DNA from: Promethearchaeota archaeon
Lineage (GTDB): Archaea; Asgardarchaeota; Heimdallarchaeia; Hodarchaeales; Hodarchaeaceae
DNA: 64,000 nt
Assembly: GCA_048938105.1 (NCBI GenBank)
Contig: JBHLMN010000022.1
Location: 44,170-108,169, forward strand
Reading direction: 5' to 3'
The notes under the pieces are model-generated. The model saw only the letters and a program-made list of their open reading frames with translations. It did not search any database and was not told the origin of the DNA. This document shows, piece by piece, positions 1,789-54,177 of the stretch. The position numbers and the translations under genes are program-made. Position 1 is the stretch's first letter. Each line of letters opens with the position of its first letter.

Positions 1789-4674
1789 TTGGAATTTACT
1801 AAATGTGATAGGTTCAATCACTTTCTTCTTATGAAATGTGGACAGGGTGATAAAATGGGACGAGGTCACACTTTTAAGGAGAAAACAAGAATATTATTGC
1901 AAGTGTTACGAATTAATCTCAAGAAATCCTTGATAACACTTGTTGGAATGACAATTGCACTTGCAATAATCACCGCAAGTCTAATTTACTTGGAATCAAA
2001 TGAAATAGACTATTATATAGGAGTTTTAAAGAACTCAGAGTTTGAAAAGCAGCTCATATTTCATGTTTATGGAGATTCAGAGGGAAATTACTCTTTTAAA
2101 GACATCACTTTGATTCAAAACGCTGTTAATGAAAAAATTACAGAATTTAACTTGAATAATACTATTATTCAATCAAACTATCCATTTCAATGTAGAATGA
2201 ACAGAAAAATACTGTTTCGAAACACAAGTGAATTGCATTATTTTCGTGGAATCAGTATGGATGAGTCTATAATCAAAGATTGTGTGAAAGGGAGTAAAAT
2301 TCCAGGTACACCCGATGAAGTGCTTATTTTTATACCTAGTAATGACCCAATTGAGCTAGATATAAACGAGACTATCCATTTTTCACTCTTCTATGAGGAA
2401 AACAATAACGAAAAATCACACAATATTAGTCTGAAAATTTCAGGAATGTTAACTGCTTCAAGTATTCGTTCTTCCTCTCAATTATGGTATATGGTGAGTG
2501 AGCATAATAGAATTCAAATCATCATGAACATAAAGCAGTACTTAGAGTTACTGAACACCTTAAGGACACTATCTGATGAAACTATTTCAAATAGGCTCGA
2601 GTTGTATTATTCCTTTGACTTTTCCACGGTGAATCACCAAAATGCCATCCAAATAATTGATAGATTACTTGAATTCGGTCGGATGGGTTGGGATTTTCAA
2701 ATTCAGGTTGTGACTCCTCGTGAATCAACGTGGTATGATATTTACATATCTTCAATGTCATGGTATTATATGATTCAAGATAGTGTTAGTAAATTTAGTA
2801 TGTTTTTCTTCCTTTTTACAGTCCTTTGTATTCCTGCTTTTATCATCACCTTTCTGTTAGTGAATTTTTCACTTGGAGTAATCAATGAAGGCAGAAGAAA
2901 AACCCTTACTCTATATAAAATGAGAGGGGTTTCGAAAAAATTTATTTTAACCATGTTATGTGTGGAAATATTGAGCCTTGCATTTATTGCCTCAATATTA
3001 GGATTAATTCTGGGATTACCTGTTTATTTCTTGATATCAACTACAACTGGCTATCTGAGCTTCGATTTGACAAAATGGCCAAATTTTACAATCGTTTCTC
3101 AAGCTACTGTTACGACTGTAATTGGATTCAGTTTGTGTTTCACCTTCCTTTTACATCTTAGTGCAATAATCAAGCTCGTTAATGCAAGAATTGTCCATTT
3201 GGAAGAAGAGGCAAGTAAGAAGAAAAAACGGAAGAGAGGAACTATCCGTCAAAATATTGATATTTTCTTACTATCTCAAGGAATAATTGGTATTCTTCTT
3301 CTCAACCTACTAATGGAAATTTTATATGAGACTGGTATGATAGAGAGTGGATTAGCTGTTTACTTTATGGGATTTATTTTCATATTTGCCTTTTTAAGTC
3401 CATTATCTCTCTTAGTTGGATTCATTTTCGCATTTAATAGATTAATGCCAGTCATGTTGGAAAAATTAGGTGGTTTATTATGGAAAAAGGACTTTAAATT
3501 TCTGGCTGTGGCAACTCGTAACTTATTTGTGAACATAAAGTTAACCACACGTACAACCCTGCTAATAGCTGTTACTGTCAGTTTTTTAATGATTTTGTCT
3601 TCGCTTCCCCTCTCATTAAATCAACATATCATTAATACGACTTATTATAAGGCTGGAAGTGATCTTGTTATTCAAACATGGGATTTGGTTGATGAAAATG
3701 CTATTAGGAATCTTTCAACCAAATTACATGAACTTCCTGGTTTAACTACGACGCTTGTTTCATTTAATGATTATGGGGAAATTGAAATTATGGGTATTGA
3801 AGATAATTTTGATAATGTGGCATTTTGGAAGTCACATTATGCAAAACAACCCCTCAGTAATCTCGTATCAGCACTTTATAGCTCTAAAAGTCAATTTCCA
3901 GTAATTATTGACTCCTCTTCCGCGAGAATTGAAAAGATAACTGTCAATGATAATTATCTTCTCAACTTAGATAATCAAAATCCTCTGAGCTTGACAATTG
4001 TAAGTAAAACAGACTATTGGCCAGGGTTAATTGAGAGACATCGGGATGAGGAAAGATTTCTAATTATTAAAATATCAAATTATTTTGATTTGATAAGCGA
4101 GGATGATTCCTATATTTGGTGTAAAATCGATCCAAGTTTCGATAAGGATGAAGTTCTTGAACAGGCTAAAAATGTAACCCTGGGATTAGGGGTCGATATT
4201 AGGAGCTTTCATCCTACCACTGAAAAATTAGATTTAGATCCAAAGTCTCTTGAAGTGAATTTTCTTTGGATCATCACAAATTTTAATTTCCTTGTTGCTC
4301 TCTTAGTGTTATTACTCTTTTTATTTTTGTTTACAATAACACGTATCACAAACCAATTGAAAGAAATTGGATTAAGTAGAGCATTAGGAATGAAATTTCA
4401 CCAAATCTTTCTCCTAATGTTCATTGAACCCTTTCTATTGGTTTTAATAAGTGGTTTACCAGGAGGATTAATCGGTTTAGGATTATTAATGACCGTCATA
4501 AATTTCGGTCAAGGACCCCCATTCAGCTATGATCCTCCATTCATTTTAATGATTGATTTTCCATCTATTTTCCTTATTTTTGGCTCAATTTTAATCACAG
4601 CAGTCATGTCTGGATTTATTACCTCGTACCGAGCAACTAGAGCCGATGTGTCTAAGATTCTCAAAGTGGAGTGA
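1789..4674 (+). CDS. FtsX/MacB-type ABC transporter permease (true start may be 1855)
   Basis: Two FtsX TM domains (RRKTLTLYKMRG; KEIGLSRALG) with extracellular loops. Confidence 0.85.
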   Translation: MEFTKCDRFNHFLLMKCGQGDKMGRGHTFKEKTRILLQVLRINLKKSLITLVGMTIALAIITASLIYLESNEIDYYIGVLKNSEFEKQLIFHVYGDSEGNYSFKDITLIQNAVNEKITEFNLNNTIIQSNYPFQCRMNRKILFRNTSELHYFRGISMDESIIKDCVKGSKIPGTPDEVLIFIPSNDPIELDINETIHFSLFYEENNNEKSHNISLKISGMLTASSIRSSSQLWYMVSEHNRIQIIMNIKQYLELLNTLRTLSDETISNRLELYYSFDFSTVNHQNAIQIIDRLLEFGRMGWDFQIQVVTPRESTWYDIYISSMSWYYMIQDSVSKFSMFFFLFTVLCIPAFIITFLLVNFSLGVINEGRRKTLTLYKMRGVSKKFILTMLCVEILSLAFIASILGLILGLPVYFLISTTTGYLSFDLTKWPNFTIVSQATVTTVIGFSLCFTFLLHLSAIIKLVNARIVHLEEEASKKKKRKRGTIRQNIDIFLLSQGIIGILLLNLLMEILYETGMIESGLAVYFMGFIFIFAFLSPLSLLVGFIFAFNRLMPVMLEKLGGLLWKKDFKFLAVATRNLFVNIKLTTRTTLLIAVTVSFLMILSSLPLSLNQHIINTTYYKAGSDLVIQTWDLVDENAIRNLSTKLHELPGLTTTLVSFNDYGEIEIMGIEDNFDNVAFWKSHYAKQPLSNLVSALYSSKSQFPVIIDSSSARIEKITVNDNYLLNLDNQNPLSLTIVSKTDYWPGLIERHRDEERFLIIKISNYFDLISEDDSYIWCKIDPSFDKDEVLEQAKNVTLGLGVDIRSFHPTTEKLDLDPKSLEVNFLWIITNFNFLVALLVLLLFLFLFTITRITNQLKEIGLSRALGMKFHQIFLLMFIEPFLLVLISGLPGGLIGLGLLMTVINFGQGPPFSYDPPFILMIDFPSIFLIFGSILITAVMSGFITSYRATRADVSKILKVE

Positions 4675-6250: not shown

Positions 6251-6360
6251 ATTAGACTATTCATGTGACATATTGAATGAATAGATATAGAAGTAAAGAA
6301 ACTTCAGAAGAAGTAGAGGAGTGGCGATGATACCTTCGTTGAATTTAATAAACAGGACTT

Positions 6361-6561
6361 GTGAACTTGAATAAGAAAAAAGGTGTCGGAGTAATTCTAT
6401 CTGTAATTGGAATTATTATAATGTTTATTACTAGTTCTATAGAAAGAGAGTTTCTTTCATTTGAACAATTTCTTTGGATATCATCTGGATTAATTTTGGG
6501 AATTGGTCTTTCTCTTCTTTTTTCCTTCTCTTTATTCCAAAAAAAAGAAGGCAATTCTTGA
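6361..6561 (+). CDS. Small two-TM membrane protein
   Basis: Two hydrophobic helices; a decayed second copy lies at 13330-13530. Confidence 0.65.
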   Translation: MNLNKKKGVGVILSVIGIIIMFITSSIEREFLSFEQFLWISSGLILGIGLSLLFSFSLFQKKEGNS

Positions 6562-6718
6562 TAGTAATAGATTGTTAAGATCCCAGTTATAGAAGATGTC
6601 TGTTATTGTCCTCTTTTTCTTGGAATCGCTATCAAAAATCAAAAAAAGTAAATGGATTGGAACACCTTTTTGAAAGAATATCTTTGGTAAATAAGATTCT
6701 ACTCCTCTATAACACCTC

Positions 6719-13124: not shown

Positions 13125-13329
13125 ATAAAACAATCATTACTATTATAGAAAATAGCATTTCAAGAGGTAGAAGTCTAGAAATTTAAAATATTCACAAGTT
13201 CCTGGTTATAAGTAATTATATCAAATTGGAAGTACAGTGGCTCTTGAAAGAATCATTCAAGGTGACTGGGAGGAATATCTCCAGAATAAGCTCCCCACTA
13301 TATCAAACAAGTTATATTAAACAGGACTT

Positions 13330-13530
13330 GAGAACTTGAATAAGAAAAAAGGTGTCGGAGTAATTCTATCTGTAATGGGGATTATTCTAATGTTTATTAC
13401 TAGTTCTATAGAAAGAGAATTCTTTTCATTTGAACAATTTCTTTAGATATCATCTGGATTAATTGTGGGAATTGGTCTTTCTCTTCTTTTGAACTTTTCT
13501 TTATTCCAAAAAAAAGAAGGTAATTCTTAA
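13330..13530 (+). pseudogene. Decayed copy of the small membrane gene 6361-6561
   Basis: Colinear near-identity; GTG>GAG at the start and in-frame TGG>TAG at 13444-13446. Confidence 0.9.
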
Positions 13531-13547
13531 TAATAATAGTAGAAAAC

Positions 13548-13603: not shown

Positions 13604-13758
13604 GGAAAGATGACATAGGGTTACTCCTAGGAGGGGTCTCTCCAAGGAAGAATGCGAGATGAGGACTCACTCCACCTAAATATTGCATGAGTGCTTCTTT
13701 ACTCATGAATATTTCAATTGAAATTCATATATGGTCTTGTTTTTGTAATACCTCAATC
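13604..13758 (-). repeat. HerA 5' relic + full junction core (13664-13712) + GTPase 3' relic
   Basis: Matches 39242-39350 and the GTPase end near 53654-53693. Confidence 0.9.
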
Positions 13759-23258: not shown

Positions 23259-23650
23259 AGAGGATTTTTTCGAAGTGGAAAGAGGGGGTCGTTTTACTCA
23301 TGGGAGGGGCTTCTCCAAGGAAGATTTTGATATGAGGACTCACTCCTCCTAAATTTTCCTCAGATGCTTATTGATTCATGAAAATTCAGAATGAAATTCA
23401 TATATCGCCTTTTTTTCGTAATACCTCAATAGCTAAATCATGAAAAATGGTTTCAATAGATTTTCTCTCAGTTAGGTTGGACTCATAATACGAAACTCCT
23501 AATTCATTCGCTAAATTCTGGCCCTCTTCTGTTGTTACAGTTTCCGATTCAGTGATAAACCCCAGGATCGCAATCGGAACTGAAGATTCAGGAATTTGAT
23601 GAACTAAATTTCTTATTCAAATCTTTAACGGCTTTGAACGATGCCCTATC
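23259..23650 (-). repeat. HerA 5' relic + junction core (23337-23385) + long GTPase 3' relic
   Basis: Colinear with 39224-39350, then with 53666-53910; frameshifted. Confidence 0.92.
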
Positions 23651-23716
23651 ATCATAGTATGGGGGGGAAAGCCTGATCTGAGGCTGTTTTCGATGGTTAT
23701 GACTTGCGGTGTCAAG

Positions 23717-25030: not shown

Positions 25031-25173
25031 CTTCTATATATATATTTAGCTAGAGTTCGAGTTAATCATTTACATAGTTTCATAATCTGCAGAAACAATT
25101 CTGGGTAAATGAACATCAGAAGGGAGGAGAACATAGAGTTAGGAACCGAAAAATATCTATTTGGGGTCATCAG

Positions 25174-25510
25174 TGGTAAGAATTTCTTGAATGGGATTAA
25201 AAAACATCTCTTGATAAGAAGCTCGTAATTGACTCTGAAACGGACGGTGGGACAACTCCTAGAGGGAAATCTGCCCATTGATCGAAACGATACAACGGCG
25301 TTCGTCGCGTTTGGCTTTCAAGAGCTGACGTAATTGCTCATATTCATTCCGAGGGAAGCCCAAGAGGTTTGCAATGTCAAAGGGATTGAATGCTTATTTA
25401 CTCATGAAAATTCAGAATAAAATTCATATGTCGCCTTTTTTTCATAAAACCTCAATAGCTAAATCCTGAAAAATGATTTCGATAGTTTTTCTGTCAGTCA
25501 ATTTGGACTC
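25174..25510 (-). pseudogene. Collapsed HerA-GTPase copy: HerA 3' relic fused directly to the core (25392-25411) and GTPase 3' relic
   Basis: 25174-25391 matches 37118-37383 with a gap; then gcttatttactcatgaaaattcag... of the GTPase end. Confidence 0.92.
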
Positions 25511-25648
25511 AAAAAAAGGAAATTAACAAGGAAATTTCTTTTTCTCAGATAACCTTTTTAGATGATCAAGCAACATGAATAGAAGTAAGATTTATTCAAT
25601 GGGTTGGACATGGGAAATGAAATTATTCATACTGGAGCAGTTTAGATA

Positions 25649-30435: not shown

Positions 30436-30457
30436 TCGCCAGGGGTAAAAATAGGAA

Positions 30458-30527
30458 TCATTCTTTGGTCAAAATTTCTCGAATGGGATCAAAATACAAC
30501 TGTTGATAGGACTCACGTAATTGTTTC
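30458..30527 (-). pseudogene. HerA 3'-end relic convergent with RDD
   Basis: Matches 37110-37179 including the stop; a weaker similar relic is at about 29726-29757. Confidence 0.88.
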
Positions 30528-34677: not shown

Positions 34678-35367
34678 GTGGAATCAATTGTTTTAAAAGA
34701 TGATAGAATGTCAGACAATGAGAAACATAAGCCTGAAGAAAAGGAAAAAAATAAAGAAAGAAAGAAAACTGATGAAAATAAATTTGAGGAGTTAAAATTT
34801 TTCATCCAGATATGGCAACATCACGACACGATGTTTTGGAATAGATTCACAACCTTTATTGCTGCCGCCTCGATATTGATAACATTTTTAGGTGCAGTTG
34901 TTCTTTTCGGCATAAGTAATCAAAATCTAAGAAATGAAAACCTACTATCAACGCGAATATCAGCCATAATAGTTCTAATGGCGGGAGCTTTTGTGGTAAT
35001 TACGATTTTTTGGTATTTCATGTTGAACCACATTTTTATATGGGTAGATTTTTACTTAAAAAAAGCTAGGGCTTCTCAAAAGGAACTTGGTATGAAAATA
35101 CTTTTTAATAATAGTGAAGGGCCAATATTTCCTTTTCTAGCAAAAATTCCAAGTATTCGTATTATGGACTTTCTCTTTAGCTTTTTCTGTATATGTGGAA
35201 TCTTGGTGGTAATTCAGCATTTTTTGATGGTTCATTTCTCTTCATGGTCAATTGATAATCCTGCAATATTCATTGGAATCATAGTTATTACACCAATCGG
35301 AACACTGGTAAGCCAACACTTGTTGAATCAGTGGCGTTCAAATAAAATTAAAGCATTTGAATTTTAA
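34678..35367 (+). CDS. Four-TM membrane protein
   Basis: W.HHD..FW.R...F motif followed by TM hairpins. Confidence 0.65.
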   Translation: MESIVLKDDRMSDNEKHKPEEKEKNKERKKTDENKFEELKFFIQIWQHHDTMFWNRFTTFIAAASILITFLGAVVLFGISNQNLRNENLLSTRISAIIVLMAGAFVVITIFWYFMLNHIFIWVDFYLKKARASQKELGMKILFNNSEGPIFPFLAKIPSIRIMDFLFSFFCICGILVVIQHFLMVHFSSWSIDNPAIFIGIIVITPIGTLVSQHLLNQWRSNKIKAFEF

Positions 35368-35451
35368 CCTCTGAGGATAGTTCAAATTCCTTTTTCTTTA
35401 TTTTTCTAGGAAAACGTATCCCGTTTAACATCAATGAATCATTATCAACAA

Positions 35452-35725
35452 CAGTATCCAAGCCTTTCTTGCGAAACCACCCATGTTCCAAAGGACTTAT
35501 GTAGATGTGGATCGATTTCGGATCAAAAATGGCATACTTCAACGAAAAGGTTTCTTTGACATGCTGGAAGACGTTAATACTGGAACGATCAACATTAAGA
35601 GGAATGTGTGCAAAGTGGAAAGAGGGGATCGTTTTTCTCATGGGAGAGGCCTCTCCAGAGAAGAAATCACTAAGGTTACTCACTCCTCCTAGGTATGGAA
35701 AAAGCGCTTATTTACTCATGAAAAT
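35452..35725 (-). pseudogene. HerA N-terminal relic + junction core (35677-35725)
   Basis: SPMRKTIPSFHFAHIPLNVDRSSINVFQH...WFRKKGLDT versus the intact HerA N-terminus. Confidence 0.93.
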
Positions 35726-35955
35726 GATTTCATCGTGAGATAAACCTTTTTTAAGGCTCAAAGAGCTATTAACCTGTAGTTGGGATTTGGTTCAAAAGGG
35801 AAACCACCTTGAGGTATAGTAAAGTGGTTCTCATTTTAATGCTTTTCATTTGTCTAGTTGTCTGTGGATTATCCCAAGAGCTTCCCTTTACCCCTGAAGA
35901 CCAGAAAAATTTCTTATCTTGGGTCATCCTTGGGACAGATAAATACCATTTGTAA
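35726..35955 (+). pseudogene. Promoter + signal-peptide relic of a CASH cassette gene
   Basis: Matches 39351-39525 and 51835-52012; TTG 35809 gives MRYSKVVLILMLFICLVVCGLSQELPFTPEDQ..., stop at 35955. Confidence 0.9.
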
Positions 35956-37109: not shown

Positions 37110-39326
37110 TTATTCTTTGGTCAGAATTTCCTGAATGGGATCAAAATACAATTGTTGATAAGAGTCACGCAATTGTTTCTGAAATGAAAGATTAGATAAT
37201 TCATCTAAATCCATAGACAAGTCAGGATCTAAGAGAAACTCATTAGTCTTCAAGAGGGAAATCTGACCGTTGACCGAAATGATACAGCGGCGTTCATCTT
37301 GTTTAGCTTTTAATAATTGACGTAATTGCTCATATTCATCCTTTGGAATACCTAAGAGATTCGAAACCTCGAAAGGGTTGAATTTCGTGAAGAAAAGAGT
37401 CAACAGGCCAGTGTTTGTTAACATAGGTTGGTCAATAATAGGTTCCGTGCCAATAAAAATCATAGAAATGTCATATGCACGTAAGGTCCAAGGGCCACGT
37501 CCAATCATAGATTCAGGAGATTTCGAACGGAAATTCTTCGCAGGAGCGAGCTTTTGGATCTCATCCAACACGAAGACATTTTTCGGCAACGATTCTTCTT
37601 TGAAAGGAGCTCGAAAGGTACGAACATAATAATATAAATTCTGAAAGACCACATTTAGAAAAATCTCCCGCCCGCTTTGATCCTCCATAGCCTCAAAGGC
37701 AGAGAGGTCAATAATGGCATTCCGATCAAGGAGGTTGGCAACCTCAAAGGTGGTCTTTGATACCGTGAAACACCGCCCCGTATTACCAAAGAAGAGTTTT
37801 TCGACACGATTCAAGATGCCTGTCGCAGTATTCTCAAGATAAGCCCCCTTCATTCCCAACTCATCGGGATTCTCCAGATAGAAAAGAAACCTCCGAAAAT
37901 CCCCCTGATCTTTCACTGTTTGAATAACAGTAAGATGAAGCATCCGCCGCATCTGGGGAGATACAGCATCCTCATTATCAAAAATATGTTCTAGAATGGA
38001 GACCGCAAATTGGATATGGTCTTCAACAGGGATAAGAGGTTGACCTGCATCATTCAGAGGAATTTGGAAGATATTAATCCCCCAAGGGAAGGAGGCAGAC
38101 CCAGGCTTTAAGTAGAGAAAATCATCACAAAAAGTCCTAACAGGGGAAAGATACTCCCCTTTCGGATCAAAAATGAGAAATTTGACCCCTTTTTGGTGAA
38201 ATTCGTTGATTAAACCATAAATGAAACGACTTTTGCCCTCACCTGTCATACCAAAAACAGCCATGTGCCGACAGAGGTCTTTCCCGTCAATTAATAAAGG
38301 AACATTAGAGGTTTTGCCGCTAATAATGGGAATCCCAAGGTTGATGGCACGTTGAGGAGAAGTTTCACTTATACCCGTGGATAAGGTGTAATCAGATTTG
38401 TTGGGGACGAGAGTATACCCCTCGTGGGAGAATTGCCGCTGAGGAGGAGCAATGAAACTCATTAGAGACGAACCATCCAAAGTAATGGGGGACACCAGCT
38501 TTCTGGAAACACACAACTTCCTGAGGGAAGGAAAACGTCTGAAAAAAGTGGGATAAGAGCGAGCTTTAAGTCCCTTAGAGACAAATAAGACAGATAAACG
38601 ATTAAGCTTGGCTTTTAACAACTCAGGACTGGTTTCCACAACTAAAATCCGAGGAGAGAAGCGAAAACAACCAGCTTCCTCCATGATGTTCATTCGCTGA
38701 GGTTGGAAACGGCGTTCGACTTTACCCTGTTGAATATCAAAACGGACATGACTCAGATGCCGTTCCTGATCATCATCAGATTGGAACTTCTTGGGGACTT
38801 TGATGGATTTGAAGACAAATTGAAGAAAAGCAAATTGAGGATTGTCCGTCAAAATTTCAAGCAGATGATCAGTGAAACCATCAGCTGTGGTAAAAGGAGG
38901 TTCTGCAGTGCCCTCTAAACCAAGGATTCCTCCACAGAAAAAAGTAGGGCCATCTGTACTAACCTGAAAAGACTTAGTCAAAAGGTCAAGAAGCACATGA
39001 ATCGGGGTGGGTTCAATCTTGTGAAAGTCAGGATGTAAGCCCATGGCAATAGCAAACTGCTGAATGGTGGCGATACCAGTATCTAAGCTTTTCTTGCGAA
39101 ACCACCCGCGTTCAAGGGGACACATGTGGATGTGGACAGATTTTGGATCAAAAATGGTATACTCCAACGAAAAGGTTTCTTTGGCATGCTGGAAGATGTT
39201 AATACTAGACCGATCAACATTAAGAGGAATGTGTTCGAAGTGGAAAGAGGGGATCGCTTTGCTCATGGGTGAGGCCTCTCTAAGGGAAAAATCGAGTTGA
39301 TGACTCACTCCTCCTAGGTATTGCAT
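37110..39326 (-). CDS. HerA/FtsK/VirB4-like P-loop ATPase (DUF87 type)
   Basis: RHMAVFGMTGEGKS Walker A, IFDPKGEY, FVLDEIQ Walker B; true start probably a little downstream of 39326. Confidence 0.88.
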   Translation of the reverse strand: MQYLGGVSHQLDFSLREASPMSKAIPSFHFEHIPLNVDRSSINIFQHAKETFSLEYTIFDPKSVHIHMCPLERGWFRKKSLDTGIATIQQFAIAMGLHPDFHKIEPTPIHVLLDLLTKSFQVSTDGPTFFCGGILGLEGTAEPPFTTADGFTDHLLEILTDNPQFAFLQFVFKSIKVPKKFQSDDDQERHLSHVRFDIQQGKVERRFQPQRMNIMEEAGCFRFSPRILVVETSPELLKAKLNRLSVLFVSKGLKARSYPTFFRRFPSLRKLCVSRKLVSPITLDGSSLMSFIAPPQRQFSHEGYTLVPNKSDYTLSTGISETSPQRAINLGIPIISGKTSNVPLLIDGKDLCRHMAVFGMTGEGKSRFIYGLINEFHQKGVKFLIFDPKGEYLSPVRTFCDDFLYLKPGSASFPWGINIFQIPLNDAGQPLIPVEDHIQFAVSILEHIFDNEDAVSPQMRRMLHLTVIQTVKDQGDFRRFLFYLENPDELGMKGAYLENTATGILNRVEKLFFGNTGRCFTVSKTTFEVANLLDRNAIIDLSAFEAMEDQSGREIFLNVVFQNLYYYVRTFRAPFKEESLPKNVFVLDEIQKLAPAKNFRSKSPESMIGRGPWTLRAYDISMIFIGTEPIIDQPMLTNTGLLTLFFTKFNPFEVSNLLGIPKDEYEQLRQLLKAKQDERRCIISVNGQISLLKTNEFLLDPDLSMDLDELSNLSFQKQLRDSYQQLYFDPIQEILTKE

Positions 39327-39350
39327 GAGTGCTTATTTACTCATGAAAAT
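39302..39350 (+). repeat. Junction core, best-preserved copy (12-8-12 inverted repeat at 39319-39350)
   Basis: GACTCACTCCTCCTAGG TATTGCATGAGT GCTTATTT ACTCATGAAAAT. Confidence 0.9.
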
Positions 39351-39433
39351 GATTTCATCGTGAGATAAACCTTTTTTAAGGCCCCAAGAGCTAAGACCAA
39401 TAGTCTGGGATTTGGATCAAAAGGGAAACCACA

Positions 39434-42400
39434 TTGAAATGGAGTACCACAGTTCTCATACTAATGCTTTTCATTTGGCTATTGGTCTGTGGAAAAAGCC
39501 AAGAGCTTTCATTCACCCCTGAAAATCAACTCTCTAATGGTCAGGCTGCTGATCCTCGGTTTGGTAATTCCAAAATACATCAATACACTCCCCATGATCC
39601 CATTATTATTACAAGAAATAGTGATTTTGCCTCCCAAGGATATCCTGGTTCAGGAACTATTGATGATCCATATTGGATTAAGGGATTTAATATTACTTCT
39701 CCTGATGGTGATTTAATTGCCATTAGTGATACTACTGCATATTTCTGTATTGCTAACAACTATCTCAATGGATTATCCACAGCGTGGGGAGGTATCGTCC
39801 TGAACAACGTTATTAACGGAATAATCGAAGACAATCTCGTGTTAAACCATGAATATTTAGGAATAGTGACTTATTCCTCATCCAATATTGTTATAGTTAA
39901 CAATATTGCTTTCAATAATGGTTTGAACGGAATTCGACTTGAAATGGAATCAAATAATAACCTACTTGAAAACAATACTGTTCTGGATAACAAAGCAGAT
40001 GGGATTTGGATGGGAATTTCATGTAACTATAATAGGATTATCAATAATACGGTCTATGCTAACATTGGGATTGGAATCTATTTTGGTTTGGAAGATTTTT
40101 CATATACTGGGTGTAGTGATAGCTTCATTTTCCGTAATTTTATTTACAATAACAGCTATGGCATAAAATTCGAGTCTTCAGATAATAACATAATCATTGG
40201 TAATAAAATTTCCAATAATACTCATCATGCCATTTATCTTGACGCTACGTCTGATAGTAACAGAATAGCAATTAATAATTTTTTTAACAATAATCTAGGG
40301 GAGCAGTCTCAAGCTTATGACGATGGAGCTGCCAATGTAATTTTTGCAAATCATTGGGACGACTGGATCACACCAGATGACGATGGAGATGGGATTGTCG
40401 ACGCCCCCTACAATATCAGTGGTCTATCAACAACACAAGATGGATTTGCACATGTATCTGCTATCATACCGCACAGCGACATTTCTATTGATGGAGATGC
40501 GATGTTTCATGCTACTGCGGCTGCCGAAAATTGGCCTGGGAACGGAACCTTGTCAAATCCCTATATCATTGAGAGACTTATCATGATTGACATAAGGAAT
40601 CGGACATTGATTGAAATTGCCAACACAAGCATCCATTTTCAAATAAGAGACAGCTTACCTTGGGGAGGATCTATCGTTTTCTCTAAGGTTTCACATGGAA
40701 TAATTCACAATAATACTATGGTTCGGAGTGGGATAGCCATTTATTCCTCCAGAAATTGTACCGTGTCAGATAATTTAGTAACTGGTGACTCAGGAGACGG
40801 AATACACCTCCTAAACTCCAATCACACATCCATTCTTAGTAATCAAGTGTTCAATAATCAAGGTCAGGGAATTTCCATTGACACCTCTTGGGATAGCACC
40901 ATCTCTGGAAATACTGTAAACAACAACAACGAAGACGGAATTCGCTTTAAGGATTCTACAGCCATTATTATTTCTAACAACACGGTTTCCCAAAACGGGG
41001 TTGGAATTTATCTTGGGAGTTCTAATAATAGCACTATTTCTAACAATATAGTCACCGACAACAAACACAATGGAATTTTTCTTGAGGATTCATCTAATAG
41101 CGCTATTTCCAACAATACAATCACTGGTTCTCCGTGGAGTGGAATTCGGCTATTAAATTCTAGTGAAAGTACCTTGGGAAATAATTCGATCACCGAATGT
41201 AGTGATGGAATTTCGGTTGATGAGTCGGAAACACTCACCCTGACCAATAATATGGTCACTAGCAACAGTGCGGATGGAATTGACCTTTTTTATTCAGGGA
41301 ATAGCATCCTATCGGGGAATATGGTCTCTAATAATGGTGGTAATGGATTTAATATTTTTGATTCAGAGACCAGTGTTCTGACTGCCAATACAGCCTCTAA
41401 TAACAATGACCTTGGAATTTTTCTTAGAGATTCTACAGACATTACCCTTTCCAACAATACAATCAAGAGCAACAGCGGTGGAATTTTTCTTTGGTATTCT
41501 GGGAATAACACACTTGTGAGCAACACTATCACAAACAATGGAAACATAGGAATAATCCTTGCTACTTCCAAAAACAATACGATTTTAGATAATATTTTGG
41601 TAAATAATGATCTTTTCATCGGGCATGCCGAAATTAATTGGGATATGCATGTGACATCTCCTACTCTAACTGATTATTTTCAAGCTGATGTAATGAACAA
41701 TTCTATAAACGGGAAACCGCTCGTATATTGGCAACATGCTGCAGGTGGAACAATACCAGCTGGAGCTGCCCAGGTCATTCTGGTGAACTGTACGGCAGTA
41801 ACAGTGGCGAATCAAGATCTTTCAAATGTCTTGTTTGGTTTACAAACGATTTCCAGCTCATGCGTGTCCATCTTAAACAATGTCATAGTTAATACTAGTA
41901 TATCTGGAATCTATCTTCTAGATTCTATTAATAGCACGATTGCTGATAATAAAATTACACACAACTATGGACTTGGAATTTTTCTTCAGGATTCTAATTC
42001 TAGCGCTATTTCCAACAATACGGTCACCAACAACAGACACAATGGAATTTTTCTTGAGGATTCTAACAATAGCAATAGTTCAAAGAATGTTGTCACCGAC
42101 AATGATGGTCATGGATTTTATCTTGGGAATTCTAAGAATTGTATGATTTCATCAAACATTATTTCTTACAATCGTGGAAAGGGAGTCGAAGTTAATGATT
42201 CTACCAACATCATCATTTCCAGCAATACCATCTCTAGTAACGACAATGGGATTCATCTTGAGAATTCATGCAATAGCGTTATCTCTGACAATACAATAAA
42301 CTACAATGAGGAAGACGGAATTCTATTTAGGGCCTCGGAGAATAGCACTATTTCCAACAATACGGTATCCAATAACATGAAAGGAATTATTCTTGGGGCC

Positions 42401-43021
42401 TCTGGGAATTGTGTTATTTATAACAATACAATCACTGACCATGATTTTCAGGGAATCGAAATTCATCGTTCTACAGCTATTACTATTTCCAACAATATAG
42501 TCTCCAACAACGACAACAATGGAATTATCCTTGAGAATTCATCCAATAGCGTTATTTCTGACAATACAATAAACTACAATAGCGGAAACGGAATTGTATT
42601 TTGGTACGATGAAATCTTAATTTCTAAAAATAACTTAATTTCTCATAATACAGTGTCTAACAATAGTGGATATGGTATTTTTATAGGTGGATCATCTAAG
42701 TTTTGCAATGTATCGTGGAACATTTTTAATGGGAATAATCGTGAGGGAACATCTCAAGCTAAAGACGATGGAAGAAATAATACCTTTGAACATAATTACT
42801 GGGACGATTGGACGGAACCCGACACGGACGGGGATGGGGTTGTTGATACACCTTATGATATTGATGGTGATGCAGAGAATCAAGATATGTACCCACGCGT
42901 TTCTCCAAATCCTGTTTCCACCCCATTTTTGAGCGAAAATATCCTCATGGGGTTAGTTTTTCTCGTACTCATCCTTCCTGTCCTGGGGATCTTAATTCGC
43001 AAGCAGAAGAGAAATTTTTGA
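39434..43021 (+). CDS. Large multi-domain NosD/CASH surface protein
   Basis: Signal peptide, several PbH1 blocks, NGKPLVYW, NYWDDW, TM + RKQKRNF. Confidence 0.92.
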   Translation: MKWSTTVLILMLFIWLLVCGKSQELSFTPENQLSNGQAADPRFGNSKIHQYTPHDPIIITRNSDFASQGYPGSGTIDDPYWIKGFNITSPDGDLIAISDTTAYFCIANNYLNGLSTAWGGIVLNNVINGIIEDNLVLNHEYLGIVTYSSSNIVIVNNIAFNNGLNGIRLEMESNNNLLENNTVLDNKADGIWMGISCNYNRIINNTVYANIGIGIYFGLEDFSYTGCSDSFIFRNFIYNNSYGIKFESSDNNIIIGNKISNNTHHAIYLDATSDSNRIAINNFFNNNLGEQSQAYDDGAANVIFANHWDDWITPDDDGDGIVDAPYNISGLSTTQDGFAHVSAIIPHSDISIDGDAMFHATAAAENWPGNGTLSNPYIIERLIMIDIRNRTLIEIANTSIHFQIRDSLPWGGSIVFSKVSHGIIHNNTMVRSGIAIYSSRNCTVSDNLVTGDSGDGIHLLNSNHTSILSNQVFNNQGQGISIDTSWDSTISGNTVNNNNEDGIRFKDSTAIIISNNTVSQNGVGIYLGSSNNSTISNNIVTDNKHNGIFLEDSSNSAISNNTITGSPWSGIRLLNSSESTLGNNSITECSDGISVDESETLTLTNNMVTSNSADGIDLFYSGNSILSGNMVSNNGGNGFNIFDSETSVLTANTASNNNDLGIFLRDSTDITLSNNTIKSNSGGIFLWYSGNNTLVSNTITNNGNIGIILATSKNNTILDNILVNNDLFIGHAEINWDMHVTSPTLTDYFQADVMNNSINGKPLVYWQHAAGGTIPAGAAQVILVNCTAVTVANQDLSNVLFGLQTISSSCVSILNNVIVNTSISGIYLLDSINSTIADNKITHNYGLGIFLQDSNSSAISNNTVTNNRHNGIFLEDSNNSNSSKNVVTDNDGHGFYLGNSKNCMISSNIISYNRGKGVEVNDSTNIIISSNTISSNDNGIHLENSCNSVISDNTINYNEEDGILFRASENSTISNNTVSNNMKGIILGASGNCVIYNNTITDHDFQGIEIHRSTAITISNNIVSNNDNNGIILENSSNSVISDNTINYNSGNGIVFWYDEILISKNNLISHNTVSNNSGYGIFIGGSSKFCNVSWNIFNGNNREGTSQAKDDGRNNTFEHNYWDDWTEPDTDGDGVVDTPYDIDGDAENQDMYPRVSPNPVSTPFLSENILMGLVFLVLILPVLGILIRKQKRNF

Positions 43022-43157
43022 GGTAAAATATACGACATAAAAAGCATTTAAGCCTCAAAAAGCTACAACCCGTAATTTGGGATTAGGTCCAAAGGTGATT
43101 CTCTGGGGAAAAAAAAAAAGGTATTTCTCAAAAAAAGGGATGAGTATGTGATATGCA

Positions 43158-43206
43158 GACTCACTCCTCCTAGGTATTGAAAAAGCGCTTATTTACTCAT
43201 GAAAAT
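43158..43206 (+). repeat. Junction core copy
   Basis: gactcactcctcctaggtattgaaaaagcgcttatttactcatgaaaat. Confidence 0.9.
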
Positions 43207-45142: not shown

Positions 45143-45380
45143 TAGTCCTATTAGCTTTCACTTATACTTTACGAGACCAATTTAGGACAAAAACCTGAAC
45201 AAGAATACAAGATGGGTGTATTCGGATTGAAATTTACAGGTCGCCTGTGTTTCGTAAAACCTCAATCGATAAATCATGCAAAATTGTTTCGATAGTTTTT
45301 CTGTCAGTTGGTGTAGACTCAAAATACAGAACTCTCAACTCATCCGCTAATTCAGGCCCTCGTCAGTTGTTACAGTTTCC
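45143..45380. pseudogene. TM-tail relic (+) fused to GTPase 3' relic (-)
   Basis: 45143-45225 matches about 21533-21615; 45221-45380 matches the GTPase C-terminal coding region. Confidence 0.85.
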
Positions 45381-45406
45381 CTTACATGAATTATTATTAA
45401 GACGGA

Positions 45407-46753
45407 TTAAATCCTTAAGTTGTAATGGAGGGTGTCTTGTAAATCTTGGATTTCTGCAATTGGAACTTGATTCACATGTGTCAGGGGATTATCGGTTAGA
45501 ATAACATATTTTAAAGCGGGACAGGAGTCTAGCGGGGAGAGATCAATGGTTTCCAACGAATTCCTATTAAAGAATAACTCCCATAACGACGGATGATTCC
45601 TGAACGGGGATAGATCAATGGAGGTAATAGCATTATCACCCAACCTGAGTTCACGAAATTTAGGACAGTGCTGCAAGGGGGAAAGGTCTATGGTCTGAAA
45701 ACGATTGTGGCTCAAGTCGAGATCTTTGAATTCAGGTAACTGTGCCAACGGGGAAAGGTCAAGAGCGGTTAATTCATTGTCTTTCAATGAAATTTCTTCT
45801 AGATGGTCACAATTTCTGAGGGGGGAGAGGTCAAGACTTTGAAGTCCGTTATTAAATATAGTTATATCTTCTAGACTGTTTTTCGGAGGCATGGGGGGTA
45901 ACACAACGGATGTCAAGGTTCTTAAAGAAAGAATTCCAATATATCTTAGGACAGGGAGGTGAGCTAATGGGGTCAAGTCAAGAGTCTGAAAATCGGTTCC
46001 TTCCGATAATTCGAAGTGGGTCAATTTCTGACAATATCGAATCAGGTCAAAACAGACCATATCAATGATGTTCAAGTTTTCAGGGATCTTGAATTCGGTG
46101 ATATCTCGTGTTTCCTTGAGTGGTTCCAAGGAGATGTACGGAAAGTCAAGGAATACATTCTTAATGAATGTTTCTTCAATGATCCGTGTAGGTGGGAAGA
46201 ATCTTTCCATGAACAGAGTACACGGGACATAAGCATTCCCTGTTTCTTCATCTCGAATGACCCGATAATCAGTAAATGTTGAGATAAGGCGCGCCTGATC
46301 AATAATCTCAGATAATGTCAGGTCAATCTTCTCTGGTATTTCGGGATAAATAATCAATTGACTCTTTCGCCCAAAGACATACCCGCTATATTTTATTTCT
46401 AATTCTTCTGGATCAAAGATTGTTTCTGAGATTGGCATCCAAACAGGTCTTTCTAGAACTTCGTTGATAGAGATCCGTTCATAGTTTTTCTTCATCTTTT
46501 CTTTACTAATCGTGGTTAAGGGACAAAGATAAAATACTAGATCCTGGTCACGGTATTCTAACACGGTATACAGATAATTCGTGGGATCGCCGAGATTCAC
46601 GTTGAGTTCTTGGGCGACTAATGTGGCAATGATAGAATCATCTTTGTCATACCGCAATTCACGCCTTGTTTGAGCAATCTTCTCGCTTATTTCCGCCTTC
46701 GAGAGTTGTTTCTGTTCGTGGATCTTCCTGATTACCTGTTCCTTACTCTGCAT
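45407..46753 (-). CDS. LRR protein with DUF2240/RPA-N-like helical N-terminus
   Basis: LDLSPL repeats; N-terminal I..KI....LS..EI...I.....L......IA.LVAQELNV; paralog of 55647-57083. Confidence 0.85.
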   Translation of the reverse strand: MQSKEQVIRKIHEQKQLSKAEISEKIAQTRRELRYDKDDSIIATLVAQELNVNLGDPTNYLYTVLEYRDQDLVFYLCPLTTISKEKMKKNYERISINEVLERPVWMPISETIFDPEELEIKYSGYVFGRKSQLIIYPEIPEKIDLTLSEIIDQARLISTFTDYRVIRDEETGNAYVPCTLFMERFFPPTRIIEETFIKNVFLDFPYISLEPLKETRDITEFKIPENLNIIDMVCFDLIRYCQKLTHFELSEGTDFQTLDLTPLAHLPVLRYIGILSLRTLTSVVLPPMPPKNSLEDITIFNNGLQSLDLSPLRNCDHLEEISLKDNELTALDLSPLAQLPEFKDLDLSHNRFQTIDLSPLQHCPKFRELRLGDNAITSIDLSPFRNHPSLWELFFNRNSLETIDLSPLDSCPALKYVILTDNPLTHVNQVPIAEIQDLQDTLHYNLRI

Positions 46754-47020: not shown

Positions 47021-47163
47021 GAGGAATGTGTTCGAAGTGGAAAGAGGGAGTCGTTTTACTCATGGGAGGGGTCTCTCCAAGGAAAATTCTACGATGTAGC
47101 TTACTCCTCCTAGGTATTGCAGAGGTTCTTATTTACTCCTGAAAATTTCAATTGAAATTCAGA
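47021..47163 (-). repeat. HerA 5' relic + junction core (47098-47146) + GTPase end
   Basis: gaggaatgtgttcgaagtggaaagaggg...actcctcctaggtattgcagaggttcttatttactcctgaaaatttcaattgaaattc. Confidence 0.9.
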
Positions 47164-51341: not shown

Positions 51342-51905
51342 TTATTGAAATGGATATAATAGTCTAGTATTTGTAGCATAATTTATAAACTTTTTACCAT
51401 AAATTATCAATATACGATGTTCTGTAAACCTAAAATGCTTCTAGTTTAATTTTCCTATTGAAGATTGGCATTATCAATTTCTTCTTTCACGGTATTCACT
51501 CCCATAGCTTAAATTTTAATGAATAGTATAAAAATGTCAATAGAAAGGTTTAACACGATTGTTCTCTGCTCAAAAGCTTGAAATATTAATTTATTTAAAA
51601 GAAATTCCAATTAAAGAAGTTTGAAACTGTATTCAAAAATTACTTTCTTATTGCCTAAGTTCCTGAAGAGAAAATAGTAGTAACCTCTGTCCCCCAATAT
51701 CATATAAACCCAATCACCACGTACTTCGGATCTCCAATCAAATGCGTGGGTGAAGAAAAAACGAAATCATTGAGGAAAGTGGCAACATTGAATGACCTAT
51801 CTTCTGATTAAAGTGATTATTTACTCATGAAAATGATTTCATCGTGAGATAAACCTTTTTTAAGGCTCAAAGAGCTATAACCTCTGATTTGGGATTTGGA
51901 TTGAA

Positions 51906-53483
51906 ATGGAAACCACATTGAAATGGAGTATCGCGGTTCTCATAGTAATGCTTTTCATTTGGTTATCTGTCGATGAATTATCCCAAGAGCTTCCATTTAC
52001 CCCTGAAGACCAATTCTCGGATGATCAGGCCGCTCATCCTCGTATGAGTACATCCAAAATCCACCAATTCAATCCCCATGAACCCATAATCATTGAAGAT
52101 GATTATGGTTTTGACTCTCAGGGATTTCCTGGCTCAGGAACCATTGATGATCCCTACCGCATTGAAGGTTTTAATATCACATCTTCCAATGGAACCTCAA
52201 TCGTAATATCTAGGACAGAAAATTATTTTTGCATTAGAAATAACTTTCTTCATGGATTGTCTTCAGCAGAATTCGGTATTGAGTTTTCAGGAGTTGAGCA
52301 TGGTACAATCGAAAATAATATTGTGACAAATTATTCAACCTCTGGAATAACTCTTAGGGGTTCAAATAATAATGTTATTATAAACAATACAATTACCAAC
52401 AATGACGGCACTGGAATTTATCTTCAAGATTCTGAGAATAACACTATATCCAACAACACGATCTCCAACAACGATAGCACTGGAATTTTCCTTGATTCCT
52501 CTGTGAATAACTTTATTTCCGACAATAGCGTTTTCAACAATGATGGTGGAATTTACCTTTGGAAAATTCGGGGGGCATATTCTCTTCCTGGATATAATAT
52601 TATTGTCAACAATTTTATCGCCAACAACGAATGGACTGGAATATCCATCTATGATTCTGCAAGCAATACTATTTTGGATAATATATTGATGAATAATGGC
52701 TTTCAGGTGCAGGGTGGGTTATTGAGATACTTTTTTCAGACTGAAGTGAGGAATAACACAATCAATGGAAGAGCACTGATCTATTGGCAAAACATTATTG
52801 AAGAAACAGTTCCTCGTGGAGCGGGTCAGATCATTCTGGTTAATTGTACGGCTGTGACTGTTACCAACCAGAACTTATCAGATGTGGAAACCGGCCTTGG
52901 AGTAATTTCCAGCGATAAGTTGTCTATTTTCAACAATACAATTGTAAACAACTGCGACCACGGAATTCACCTTTGGGACTCTACAGCTAATTCTATTTCC
53001 AGAAACACAGTTTCCCACAACGGAATTGGAATTTATCTTGAAAATTCATACAGTAGCACTATTTCAAACAATATATTCTCTCATAACGGGGTAGGAATTT
53101 ATCATCAGGAGTCTGAGAACAGCGTAATTTTCAACAATACTTTTTCCAATAATCACGGGTATGGCATTTCAATACTTGATAGGTCTTCGTTTTGCAATGT
53201 CTCATGGAACATTTTCATTGGAAACAACCCTAATGGCACCTCTCAAGCATATGACGCAAGCCTGAATAATACATTTAACCAGAACTACTGGGACGATTGG
53301 GTCGGGGACGACCCCTATCCGATTGATGGTGTTGCAAACAATCGAGATAGGCATCCACAAGGTGCTCCTAATCGGGATTCTGCTTCTTATTGGAGCGAAA
53401 ACATCCTCGTGGGGTTCTTTCTTTTCGTAGTAATCCTTCCTGTCTTGGGGATATTAATTCGCAGGCAGAAGAGAAATTTTTGA
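51906..53483 (+). CDS. NosD/CASH surface protein, short allele of 39434-43021 (start may be TTG 51918)
   Basis: Shared signal/first domain and SENIL..LILPVLGILIR.QKRNF-type tail; divergent, shorter interior. Confidence 0.92.
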   Translation: METTLKWSIAVLIVMLFIWLSVDELSQELPFTPEDQFSDDQAAHPRMSTSKIHQFNPHEPIIIEDDYGFDSQGFPGSGTIDDPYRIEGFNITSSNGTSIVISRTENYFCIRNNFLHGLSSAEFGIEFSGVEHGTIENNIVTNYSTSGITLRGSNNNVIINNTITNNDGTGIYLQDSENNTISNNTISNNDSTGIFLDSSVNNFISDNSVFNNDGGIYLWKIRGAYSLPGYNIIVNNFIANNEWTGISIYDSASNTILDNILMNNGFQVQGGLLRYFFQTEVRNNTINGRALIYWQNIIEETVPRGAGQIILVNCTAVTVTNQNLSDVETGLGVISSDKLSIFNNTIVNNCDHGIHLWDSTANSISRNTVSHNGIGIYLENSYSSTISNNIFSHNGVGIYHQESENSVIFNNTFSNNHGYGISILDRSSFCNVSWNIFIGNNPNGTSQAYDASLNNTFNQNYWDDWVGDDPYPIDGVANNRDRHPQGAPNRDSASYWSENILVGFFLFVVILPVLGILIRRQKRNF

Positions 53484-53616
53484 GGTAAAATATACAACAT
53501 AAAAAGCATTTAAACCTCAAAAAGCTACAACCCGTAATTTGGGATGAGGATCCAAAGGTAATTCTCTGGAAAACAAAAAAGGAATTTCTCAAAAAAGGAT
53601 GAGTATGTGATATGCA

Positions 53617-53665
53617 GACTCACTCCTCCTAGGTATTGCTTGAATGTTTATTTACTCACGAAAAT
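53617..53665 (+). repeat. Junction core copy overlapping the GTPase stop codon
   Basis: gactcactcctcctaggtattgcttgaatgtttatttactcacgaaaat; TCA at 53656-53658 is the GTPase stop. Confidence 0.9.
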
Positions 53666-54177
53666 TCAGATTTAACTCGTAATACCTCAATAATCAAATC
53701 ATGATAGATGGTTTCGACAGTTTTTTTGTCAGTTGGTTTGGACTCATAATACAAAACTCTCAACTCATCTGCTAAATTTTGGCCCTCGGCGGTTGTTACA
53801 GTTTCCGATTCAGTAATAAACCCCACAAGCGCAATAGGAACCAAAGATTCAGGAATATGTCTCTTAAATGCTTTATACCAATCTTTGACTGCTTTAAACG
53901 AAGTTCTATCTTCCTTGGCAAAAGTAATGATGGCTGCAGATGCACCACGATAATAACTGGTTCGGATTTCTCCAAAAAACTCCTTACCCGAAGTATCCAC
54001 TAGGATTAATTTAATGTTGTTCCCAGTTACTTGGATTTGTGTAGTTAAAATCCCTACTCCGAGAACCAGTCGTGTATGGTCACCAGTCTGATAACCACAA
54101 AATCTCCGATTCATTTTTGTTTTTAATTCGTTGGGAGTTCCAATAAGACAGATTTTCAGTAAATATTCATCGGGCAT
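53656..54177 (-). CDS. Rab-like small GTPase with degenerate G1/G4 motifs
   Basis: KICLIG, IKLILVDTSGKE, SYYRGASA, SF..V..W, EG..LA..L...YYES; lacks GKT and NKxD. Confidence 0.88.
   Translation of the reverse strand: MPDEYLLKICLIGTPNELKTKMNRRFCGYQTGDHTRLVLGVGILTTQIQVTGNNIKLILVDTSGKEFFGEIRTSYYRGASAAIITFAKEDRTSFKAVKDWYKAFKRHIPESLVPIALVGFITESETVTTAEGQNLADELRVLYYESKPTDKKTVETIYHDLIIEVLRVKSEFS

Follow-up and report, generated by a model that had tools for sequence, protein, structure and literature searches.

A HerA gene end with a signature of past selection in a surface-protein island of a Hodarchaeales archaeon

Introduction

Prophage-like elements leave displaced gene ends at their integration sites, as e14 and phage 21 do in the icd gene of Escherichia coli. 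The gene end at the centre of this work resembles those, in that the duplicate end differs from the intact gene mainly by silent changes and was apparently once the working end. Unlike those, it comes with neither an integrase nor att repeats, and it is joined to an upstream element by an internal deletion.

In Vibrio cholerae, the effector-immunity modules of the T6SS undergo sequential displacement, which leaves arrays of orphan immunity genes, and homology-facilitated illegitimate recombination was proposed as the mechanism (PMC5361080). In this proposal, a conserved stretch anchors the incoming DNA, the far end of which is joined illegitimately (PMC5361080). Orphan C-terminal modules are also mentioned there for the Rhs and CDI loci (PMC5361080, refs 43-46). 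Sequential displacement, as in the T6SS arrays and in the Rhs and CDI orphan modules, appears to be the closest described process to the one that may have shaped the archaeal locus presented here. Like the T6SS arrays, this locus displays a conserved anchor, stacked modules, leftover gene ends, which at 25 kb look like an earlier or foreign allele, and no integrase. Unlike them, it resides in an archaeal host; its anchor is a GTPase/ATPase operon with its upstream element; its cargo consists of beta-helix, LRR and Kelch surface proteins and not of toxin-immunity pairs; 5' and 3' gene ends both survive; and part of the relics appear to be plain local duplicates. As far as the Rhs and CDI loci are treated in that source, what they have in common with our locus is that displaced and diverged gene ends follow in strings downstream of a single intact gene; but their payload is the variable 3' tip, whereas our relic derives from an ATPase that is conserved and housekeeping-like, with the payload in genes of its own. 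We do not regard the array as a new kind of system.

Materials and Methods

The window, i.e., the whole stretch of 64,000 nt that was analysed, corresponds to positions 44170-108169 of contig C37 in the Hodarchaeales genome G000 (5.85 Mb, 65 contigs). All the genomes compared are metagenome-assembled, and G000 has a contamination of 7%. Coordinates are window positions unless a contig or locus is named, and relics are designated by their approximate position. The relic map was obtained by aligning a composite reference (GTPase, core element and HerA) to contig C37. Three histories were simulated under a simple substitution model, starting from the resident sequence and running until the observed count of base differences was reached. 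The C-terminal HerA tree includes two additional natural a-type alleles, P0002 (GCA_016839665.1) and P0003 (JGI metagenome), and the nucleotide trees leave out P0001 and P0010.

Results and Discussion

The Island, Its Intact Genes and the Core Element

Contig C37 carries a surface-protein island with beta-helix/CASH, LRR and Kelch genes. Its cargo comprises beta-helix/NosD, LRR, Kelch, FtsX, NYN and radical-SAM-like genes, and no toxin-immunity pairs. The following intact genes and copies of a 49-nt core element serve as landmarks:

37110..39326, minus strand: intact resident HerA-like (DUF87) ATPase of the a-type, 738 aa, with its probable real start at Met21 (39266)
53656..54177, minus strand: intact resident Ras-family small GTPase, 173 aa
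53617..53665, minus strand: core copy directly behind the intact GTPase, where the HerA ATG is mutated to AAG
43158..43206, minus strand: bare copy of the 49-nt core
51812..51834, minus strand: only the first 23 nt of the core, next to the 5' end of a beta-helix gene

The resident HerA matches DUF87 (PF01935) over residues 338-546 with 64.2 bits (cut-off 23.2), and the resident GTPase matches the Ras domain (PF00071) over residues 8-165 with 87.8 bits (cut-off 21.6). Since the ATPase resembles solved HerA (E 0.009) and the PADLOC HerA models only weakly, "HerA-like" is the right label. HerA-like genes have GTPase, beta-helix and RDD genes as neighbours. The HerA orthologs of other species (loci L002, L003, L009, L026, L004, L007 and L008) start at the equivalent of Met21; hence, the first 20 "codons" of the resident frame, in the region 39266-39350, are probably leader and not protein.

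Twelve copies of the core were found, all of them on C37 and on one strand, together with HerA or GTPase pieces between unrelated cargo genes. Elsewhere in the genus, the core precedes a-type HerA genes in G009, G011, G014 and G012, and its first half precedes b-type HerA genes in G008, G012 and G017, with no GTPase upstream there. From this conservation, we read the core as a putative upstream (promoter/leader) element of HerA. A role as a recombinase site was considered and set aside, the core being conserved upstream of HerA at single-copy loci elsewhere and an inverted repeat being present in some copies only. No tyrosine recombinase gene was found on C37; the three PF00589 matches of the genome are all on other contigs.

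Structure of the 25 kb Relic

An earlier note, made from the sequence alone, had drawn attention to a HerA relic near 25 kb and to its surroundings, which comprise:

25262..25390, minus strand: the flagged HerA relic, whose codons correspond to resident residues 649-691; the codon that follows (25259-25261) reads TAG in place of the resident's TTG
25157..25255, minus strand: continuation of this relic beyond a 48-nt gap, with 27 aligned codons, its own C-terminal tail and a stop codon
25391..25411, minus strand: start of the core (21 nt), which abuts HerA codon 649 and marks a 1.95-kb deletion
25445..25516, minus strand: C-terminal GTPase piece from the same unit, covering about residues 143-166, with a 19-nt extra segment
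23717..25030, minus strand: intact gene that immediately follows the relic downstream and encodes a beta-helix (NosD/CASH-type) surface protein of 437 aa

Read on the minus strand, 25262-25390 gives the 43 residues that the note had quoted, followed by TAG, and its resident counterpart lies at 37254-37382. The described 34/43 identity with many silent changes was confirmed: 34 of 43 amino acids and 100 of 129 nucleotides are identical, a match well above the chance level (blastn E 5e-23). Of the 29 base differences, 8, 2 and 19 are at the first, second and third codon positions, respectively (chi-square p 0.0005); the NG86 estimates are dN 0.117, dS 1.52 and dN/dS 0.077, and the same bases read in the wrong frame give a ratio of 1.9. 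Past the TAG and the 48-nt gap, which is absent from all 25 intact homologs, 27 further codons (25255-25175) align in frame with a dN/dS of 0.14, and the relic ends in a short tail that differs from the resident's and has its own stop codon. Over the total of 70 codons there is no frameshift, despite a dS of about 1.4. At the deletion joint, where about 1.95 kb of the gene is gone, a short TTCAA is common to both partners.

The order of HerA followed by a beta-helix gene is the same as in the complete genome G009, where HerA overlaps a 724-aa beta-helix gene. With a GTPase piece upstream and an intact beta-helix gene downstream, the 25 kb relic can thus be recognised as the tail of a GTPase-core-HerA-beta-helix unit.

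Past Selection and Depth of Divergence

Over 70 codons, the relic differs from the resident by 28 silent and 21 non-silent changes (dS 1.42, ratio 0.10), distributed 13/6/30 over the codon positions (p 9e-5); these 43 to 70 codons are a short sample with saturated silent sites, and dN/dS values throughout are NG86 estimates. Comparisons with G009a, G011a, P0002 and P0003 give values that resemble those against the resident. The divergence between relic and resident (dS about 1.4) equals that between the resident and its G009a and G011a orthologs (dS 1.33-1.49, ratio 0.06-0.08).

In the simulations, a relic evolving neutrally since the split is predicted to show 16.1 amino acid changes over 43 codons, where 9 are seen (P 0.001), and 27.3 over 70 codons, where 18 are seen (0 of 3000 runs). 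Constraint of both copies at 0.07 fits the 43 codons and, over 70 codons, predicts 12.6 changes against the 18 observed (P 0.03); a gene that worked for long and then decayed briefly would be expected to show just such a slight misfit. By this pattern of substitutions, the 25 kb relic is a diverged copy that was apparently kept functional until shortly before its breakage.

Seven of the nine replaced residues of the relic occur in intact homologs, and the natural intact alleles P0001-P0003 have further residues specific to it. Such recurrence turned out to be useless as a discriminator, being found for 7/9 residues at 25 kb but also for 11/13 at 35.5 kb. Parsimony polarisation with outgroups can be applied to the 35.5 kb relic, which is young, but was likewise set aside at 25 kb, where saturation makes it unreliable.

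Placement of the Relic and Origin of the Resident HerA

The divergences used as baselines are the following:

a-type HerA, resident versus G009a, G011a, G014a and G012b: dS 1.33-1.69, dN/dS 0.06-0.08
b-type HerA, G000_C18 versus G003 and G007: dS 0.67-0.71, dN/dS 0.12-0.13
aEF-2, G000 versus G007: dS 0.57
aEF-2, G000 versus G003: dS 0.74
aEF-2, G000 versus G011: dS 1.25
aEF-2, G000 versus G009: dS 1.85

In the full-length HerA tree of the genus, the resident groups with G009a, G014a, G011a and G012b in an "a" clade. A second intact HerA of G000 (on C18, 70% aa) falls in the "b" clade, where the branching (C18,(G003,G007)) matches the aEF-2 distances. The C-terminal codon tree reads (P0003,(P0002,(relic25k,(G009a,G011a,(resident,relic30k))))), with support of 92/88 for the group to which the 25 kb relic does not belong and of 93/87 for the resident with the 30.5 kb relic. 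The star of relics radiating from the resident copy, which the note had named as the tree that would speak against its view, was not obtained: one relic branches deeply and one is a close sister. Forcing the relics to group with the resident costs 7.2 log-likelihood units (AU p 0.10), and none of the AU tests of relic placement in the HerA and GTPase trees reached 0.05; the position of the 25 kb relic outside resident, G009a and G011a is our best estimate, not a proof.

None of the 20 other genomes of the genus that were searched shows two intact a-type HerA copies. G003 and G007 have only a b-type gene, and G003 also holds a dead ortholog of the resident. This a-type piece, located beside the G003 GTPase, shows a dS of 0.56 to the G000 resident, in keeping with the species baseline of 0.57-0.74; hence, the resident HerA looks native, i.e., vertically inherited.

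Other HerA Relics

Further HerA relics of the window that are discussed here are:

35452..35725, minus strand: core, leader and HerA codons 21-83; apparently a young, neutrally decaying duplicate of the resident lineage
30455..30527, minus strand: last 22 codons and stop of a HerA copy, adjoining an intact RDD gene and sister to the resident
47021..47146, minus strand: relic of the core, HerA leader and first codons

In all, 5' pieces of HerA lie at 47146-47021, 35725-35452, 23385-23259 and 13712-13604, with three more to the left of the window, and 3' pieces at 25390-25157 and 30527-30455. A tree of the junction relics (core and leader, 125-160 nt) was a star and uninformative.

The relic at 35452-35683 had been thought to behave like the one at 25 kb, which was not confirmed. 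It is 88% identical to the resident at the nucleotide level over 63 codons, its differences are distributed 9/3/11 (p 0.10) and the ratio is 0.34. The neutral model predicts 14.0 amino acid changes where 13 are seen, and constraint of both copies is rejected (0 of 3000 runs). Polarised with four outgroups, the branch of the relic carries 7 non-silent to 2 silent changes, and the resident branch 3 to 6. Its non-coding flanks are 79-83% identical to those of the resident, as compared with 88% in the coding part. This picture fits the remnant of a young duplicate of the native gene, and the 30.5 kb piece is probably another one.

HerA relics of G002, G019, G003 and G009 also differ from the nearest intact gene mainly by silent changes:

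G002, contig 77, first piece: 89 codons, dN/dS 0.10, dS 0.75
G002, contig 77, second piece: 54 codons, dN/dS 0.11
G019, contig 18: 121 codons, dN/dS 0.15, the nearest gene being in another species
G003, contig 180: 43 codons, dN/dS 0.14, dS 0.56
G009: 20 codons, dN/dS 0.12, dS 0.85, with 9 of 10 differences at third positions

The GTPase and Its Relics

Besides the piece that belongs to the 25 kb unit, the GTPase left the following relics:

23259..23653, minus strand: GTPase residues 89-173, core, HerA leader and first codons
21315..21459, minus strand: GTPase residues 120-167, with the same truncation ends as the 45 kb relic
45252..45443, minus strand: GTPase residues of about 104-167, frameshifted
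13604..13757, minus strand: GTPase tail, core and HerA leader

The GTPase 3' pieces proper span 45443-45252, 25516-25445, 23653-23404, 21459-21315 and 13757-13713. Pieces were thus found at all five places where the note had seen relics with a longer C-terminus than the intact GTPase, and five relics carry 19 extra nucleotides between the ...EVLR codons and the HerA upstream core, absent from the resident and from its G003 ortholog (L034:3271-3786). The reading frame of the relics ends earlier (...RKKGDI*), so it is their DNA that is longer, and not the protein.

Over the 24-48 codons that align well, the GTPase relics show ratios of 0.26-0.50. Three of the four fit neutral decay in the simulations and reject constraint on both branches (P 0.011-0.027); the 45 kb piece alone leans the opposite way (P 0.04). 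In the GTPase tree, all relics, the resident and G003 form one clade against the paralogs (99/98), inside which the resident pairs with G003 (92/94) and the 23 kb relic with the 21 kb relic (84/97); holding all G000 copies together is not rejected (p 0.25). The intact GTPase P0010 (ENA metagenome) has the ...ELGVSYYE... motif of these last two relics, which indicates that their allele type exists as a working gene. The 21 kb and 45 kb relics share both truncation ends and have a mutual ratio of 0.86, and hence were copied when already dead and are not independent events. We propose that the GTPase pieces may represent an older allele class in long neutral decay, of which some members were copied after death.

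The claims that each relic evolved under purifying selection before being broken, and that the relics come from diverged functional alleles and not from decay of the resident genes, therefore hold for the 25 kb relic, where the ratio is about 0.1 and neutral decay is rejected. They do not extend to the 35.5 kb relic (0.34) nor, for past selection, to three of the four GTPase relics (0.26-0.50 for the set), and the 30.5 kb piece is a sister of the resident.

The resident GTPase and its G003 ortholog differ by a dS of only 0.19 over 172 codons, against a baseline of 0.67-0.74 for aEF-2 and b-type HerA (P<1e-7). This value, three to four times lower, suggests a transfer between G000 and G003 after the species split, unless the G003 contig of 9 kb was assigned to the wrong bin. 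In the 25 kb unit, the dS to the respective resident gene is about 0.4 for the GTPase piece and about 1.4 for the HerA piece; either the unit itself is a mosaic, or the resident GTPase is a newcomer. In G003 and two metagenome contigs (L068/L069/L070), the 173-aa GTPase has a second Ras-family gene (205-245 aa) in front of it and, behind it, dead pieces of a-type HerA, an SBP_bac_5 gene in convergent orientation and a NYN/OST-HTH gene. In the window, NYN/OST-HTH sits 25 kb from the GTPase.

Searches for a Donor

When the 43-aa relic was compared with 5.8 billion proteins, no intact allele closer than 84-86% identity, and hence no donor, was found. A nucleotide search with 39 kb of the window against the 20 genus genomes returned no cargo segment above 88% identity, so recent transfer could not be shown, and no recombination junction with a donor was seen. 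Searching with the linked beta-helix gene gave no donor either: its closest relatives, found in G020 and G015, are remote paralogs of 42-50% aa identity, and neither HerA nor GTPase nor core occurs in their vicinity.

Origin of the 25 kb Fragment

Our preferred reading, to which we give a probability of roughly 0.6, is that the 25 kb fragment is the 3' end of a second, long-functional and diverged a-type HerA, most likely imported, and that the other relics have other origins. The locus would have held several copies of a small operon made of the Ras-type GTPase, the conserved HerA upstream element, the HerA-like ATPase and often a beta-helix gene, of which one is whole now. At 25 kb, the second a-type HerA would have stood in a GTPase-core-HerA-beta-helix (437 aa) unit. 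It had diverged from the native copy as far as the orthologs of other species of the genus have, and was apparently under purifying selection for nearly all that time. The source would most likely be DNA of another lineage of the genus, which would have entered by recombination at the conserved sequences of the operon and been stacked next to the native copy; the redundant copy would then have decayed, broken by a nonsense codon, by the loss of 48 nt and by that of 1.95 kb between the upstream element and codon 649. The data show the signature of selection, how deep the divergence is and that the other relics behave differently, whereas the import and its route by recombination are inferred.

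The same signature of selection would fit equally well if the operon had been duplicated in this genome long ago, both a-type HerAs had remained functional and one had been broken recently, without any import. The locus clearly makes duplicates (e.g., 35.5 kb versus 39.3 kb), and the AU test is compatible with a clade of relic and resident (p 0.09-0.10). Such a duplication would have to predate the split of G000, G009 and G011 (dS about 1.4), yet none of the 20 other genus genomes searched shows two intact a-type copies; the nearest species, G003 and G007, have the b-type gene only, plus the dead resident ortholog in G003; and the best tree places the relic outside the orthologs of three species. 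Import is the more economical account of the 25 kb unit, because no genome searched shows two intact a-type copies and the relic falls outside the orthologs of three species. We thus consider that import from another lineage is probable and that an old paralog is less likely, though it is the alternative we take most seriously.

A uniform history, in which all relics would be local duplicates of resident genes eroded neutrally, accounts well for the 35.5 kb relic (7:2; 14.0 predicted versus 13) and for three of the four GTPase relics, and the 21 kb and 45 kb relics were indeed copied after death. But neutral decay is rejected for the 25 kb relic (P 0.001; 0/3000), the GTPase relics carry a 19-nt state that is absent from both the resident and G003, and the HerA relics of four other genomes are also biased towards silent changes, so that this history stands for single relics, is refuted as a general rule and is, for the array as a whole, improbable. 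We see still less likelihood in a selection of the fragments as such, whether as homology arms, att-like cassette sites or expressed small proteins. The 49-nt core (about 90%) is more conserved than the coding pieces that flank it, the neighbours differ on either side, and the 35.5 kb relic lies within an open frame of 111 aa (35348-35683); under selection on DNA sites, however, changes would not pile up at third codon positions, and the 25 kb relic contains a stop and lacks a plausible start, while the core stands upstream of a- and b-type HerA genes genus-wide, also where no array exists, and C37 lacks a recombinase gene. With a contamination of 7%, one might also suspect that the assembly had placed variants of a single locus, from different strains, one behind the other. 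This we hold to be hardly credible: the truncation points of the relics differ, unique cargo genes lie between them, and similar relics occur in the single-contig genome G009 and in independent assemblies.

Implications of the Layered Array

Relics that bear traces of past selection tell when copies went through a hypervariable locus and of which type they were. In one Asgard surface-protein island they reveal at least three layers, namely one deep allele, a class of older GTPase alleles and a duplicate of recent date, and the resident GTPase appears far younger than the species split. Taken together, this suggests that genes flowed between species alongside a local birth-and-death. Should donors be found, the locus could serve to measure recombination between Hodarchaeales lineages. 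We also put forward, as a tentative idea about which we are rather doubtful, that the GTPase-HerA junction of this Hodarchaeales genus may be a standing landing pad, into which whole units from other species, with GTPase, ATPase and surface-protein genes, were repeatedly recombined and stacked. If so, the displaced copies would constitute datable relics, from which frequent, integrase-independent recombination between species could be read in the archaea most closely related to eukaryotes.

Cargo Genes and Minor Observations

When three of the beta-helix proteins of the window were used as tblastn queries, all the matches in G000 (at least 15 copies or pieces) were located on the 108-kb contig C37. 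Two plus-strand beta-helix genes, in the regions 39302-43206 and 51812-53665 (1195 and 525 aa, respectively), have a common 5' region and 3' flank and are bracketed by the core; a third 5' stump lies at 35726-35955. The two regions look like one cassette type that may have been duplicated and then diversified inside. HerA-like genes of the genus are regularly paired with beta-helix (NosD/CASH) genes. The two overlap in one operon in G009 (L021:18119-L022:317 and L022:314-2488), and they are divergent in GCA_016839665.1 (L098:85-1800 versus 2106-4304) and in the window. This pairing may reflect a functional link, e.g., in export or assembly.

The youngest repeat of the window, of 225 nt and 92% identity (6346-6570 versus 13315-13539), consists of a small membrane gene and its flank. 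Finally, the aEF-2 gene of G000 (C11:70054-72495; L071/L073), of 814 aa, matches its family in two blocks, below the cut-off, with a gap of about 74 residues, which may be a lineage-specific insertion.
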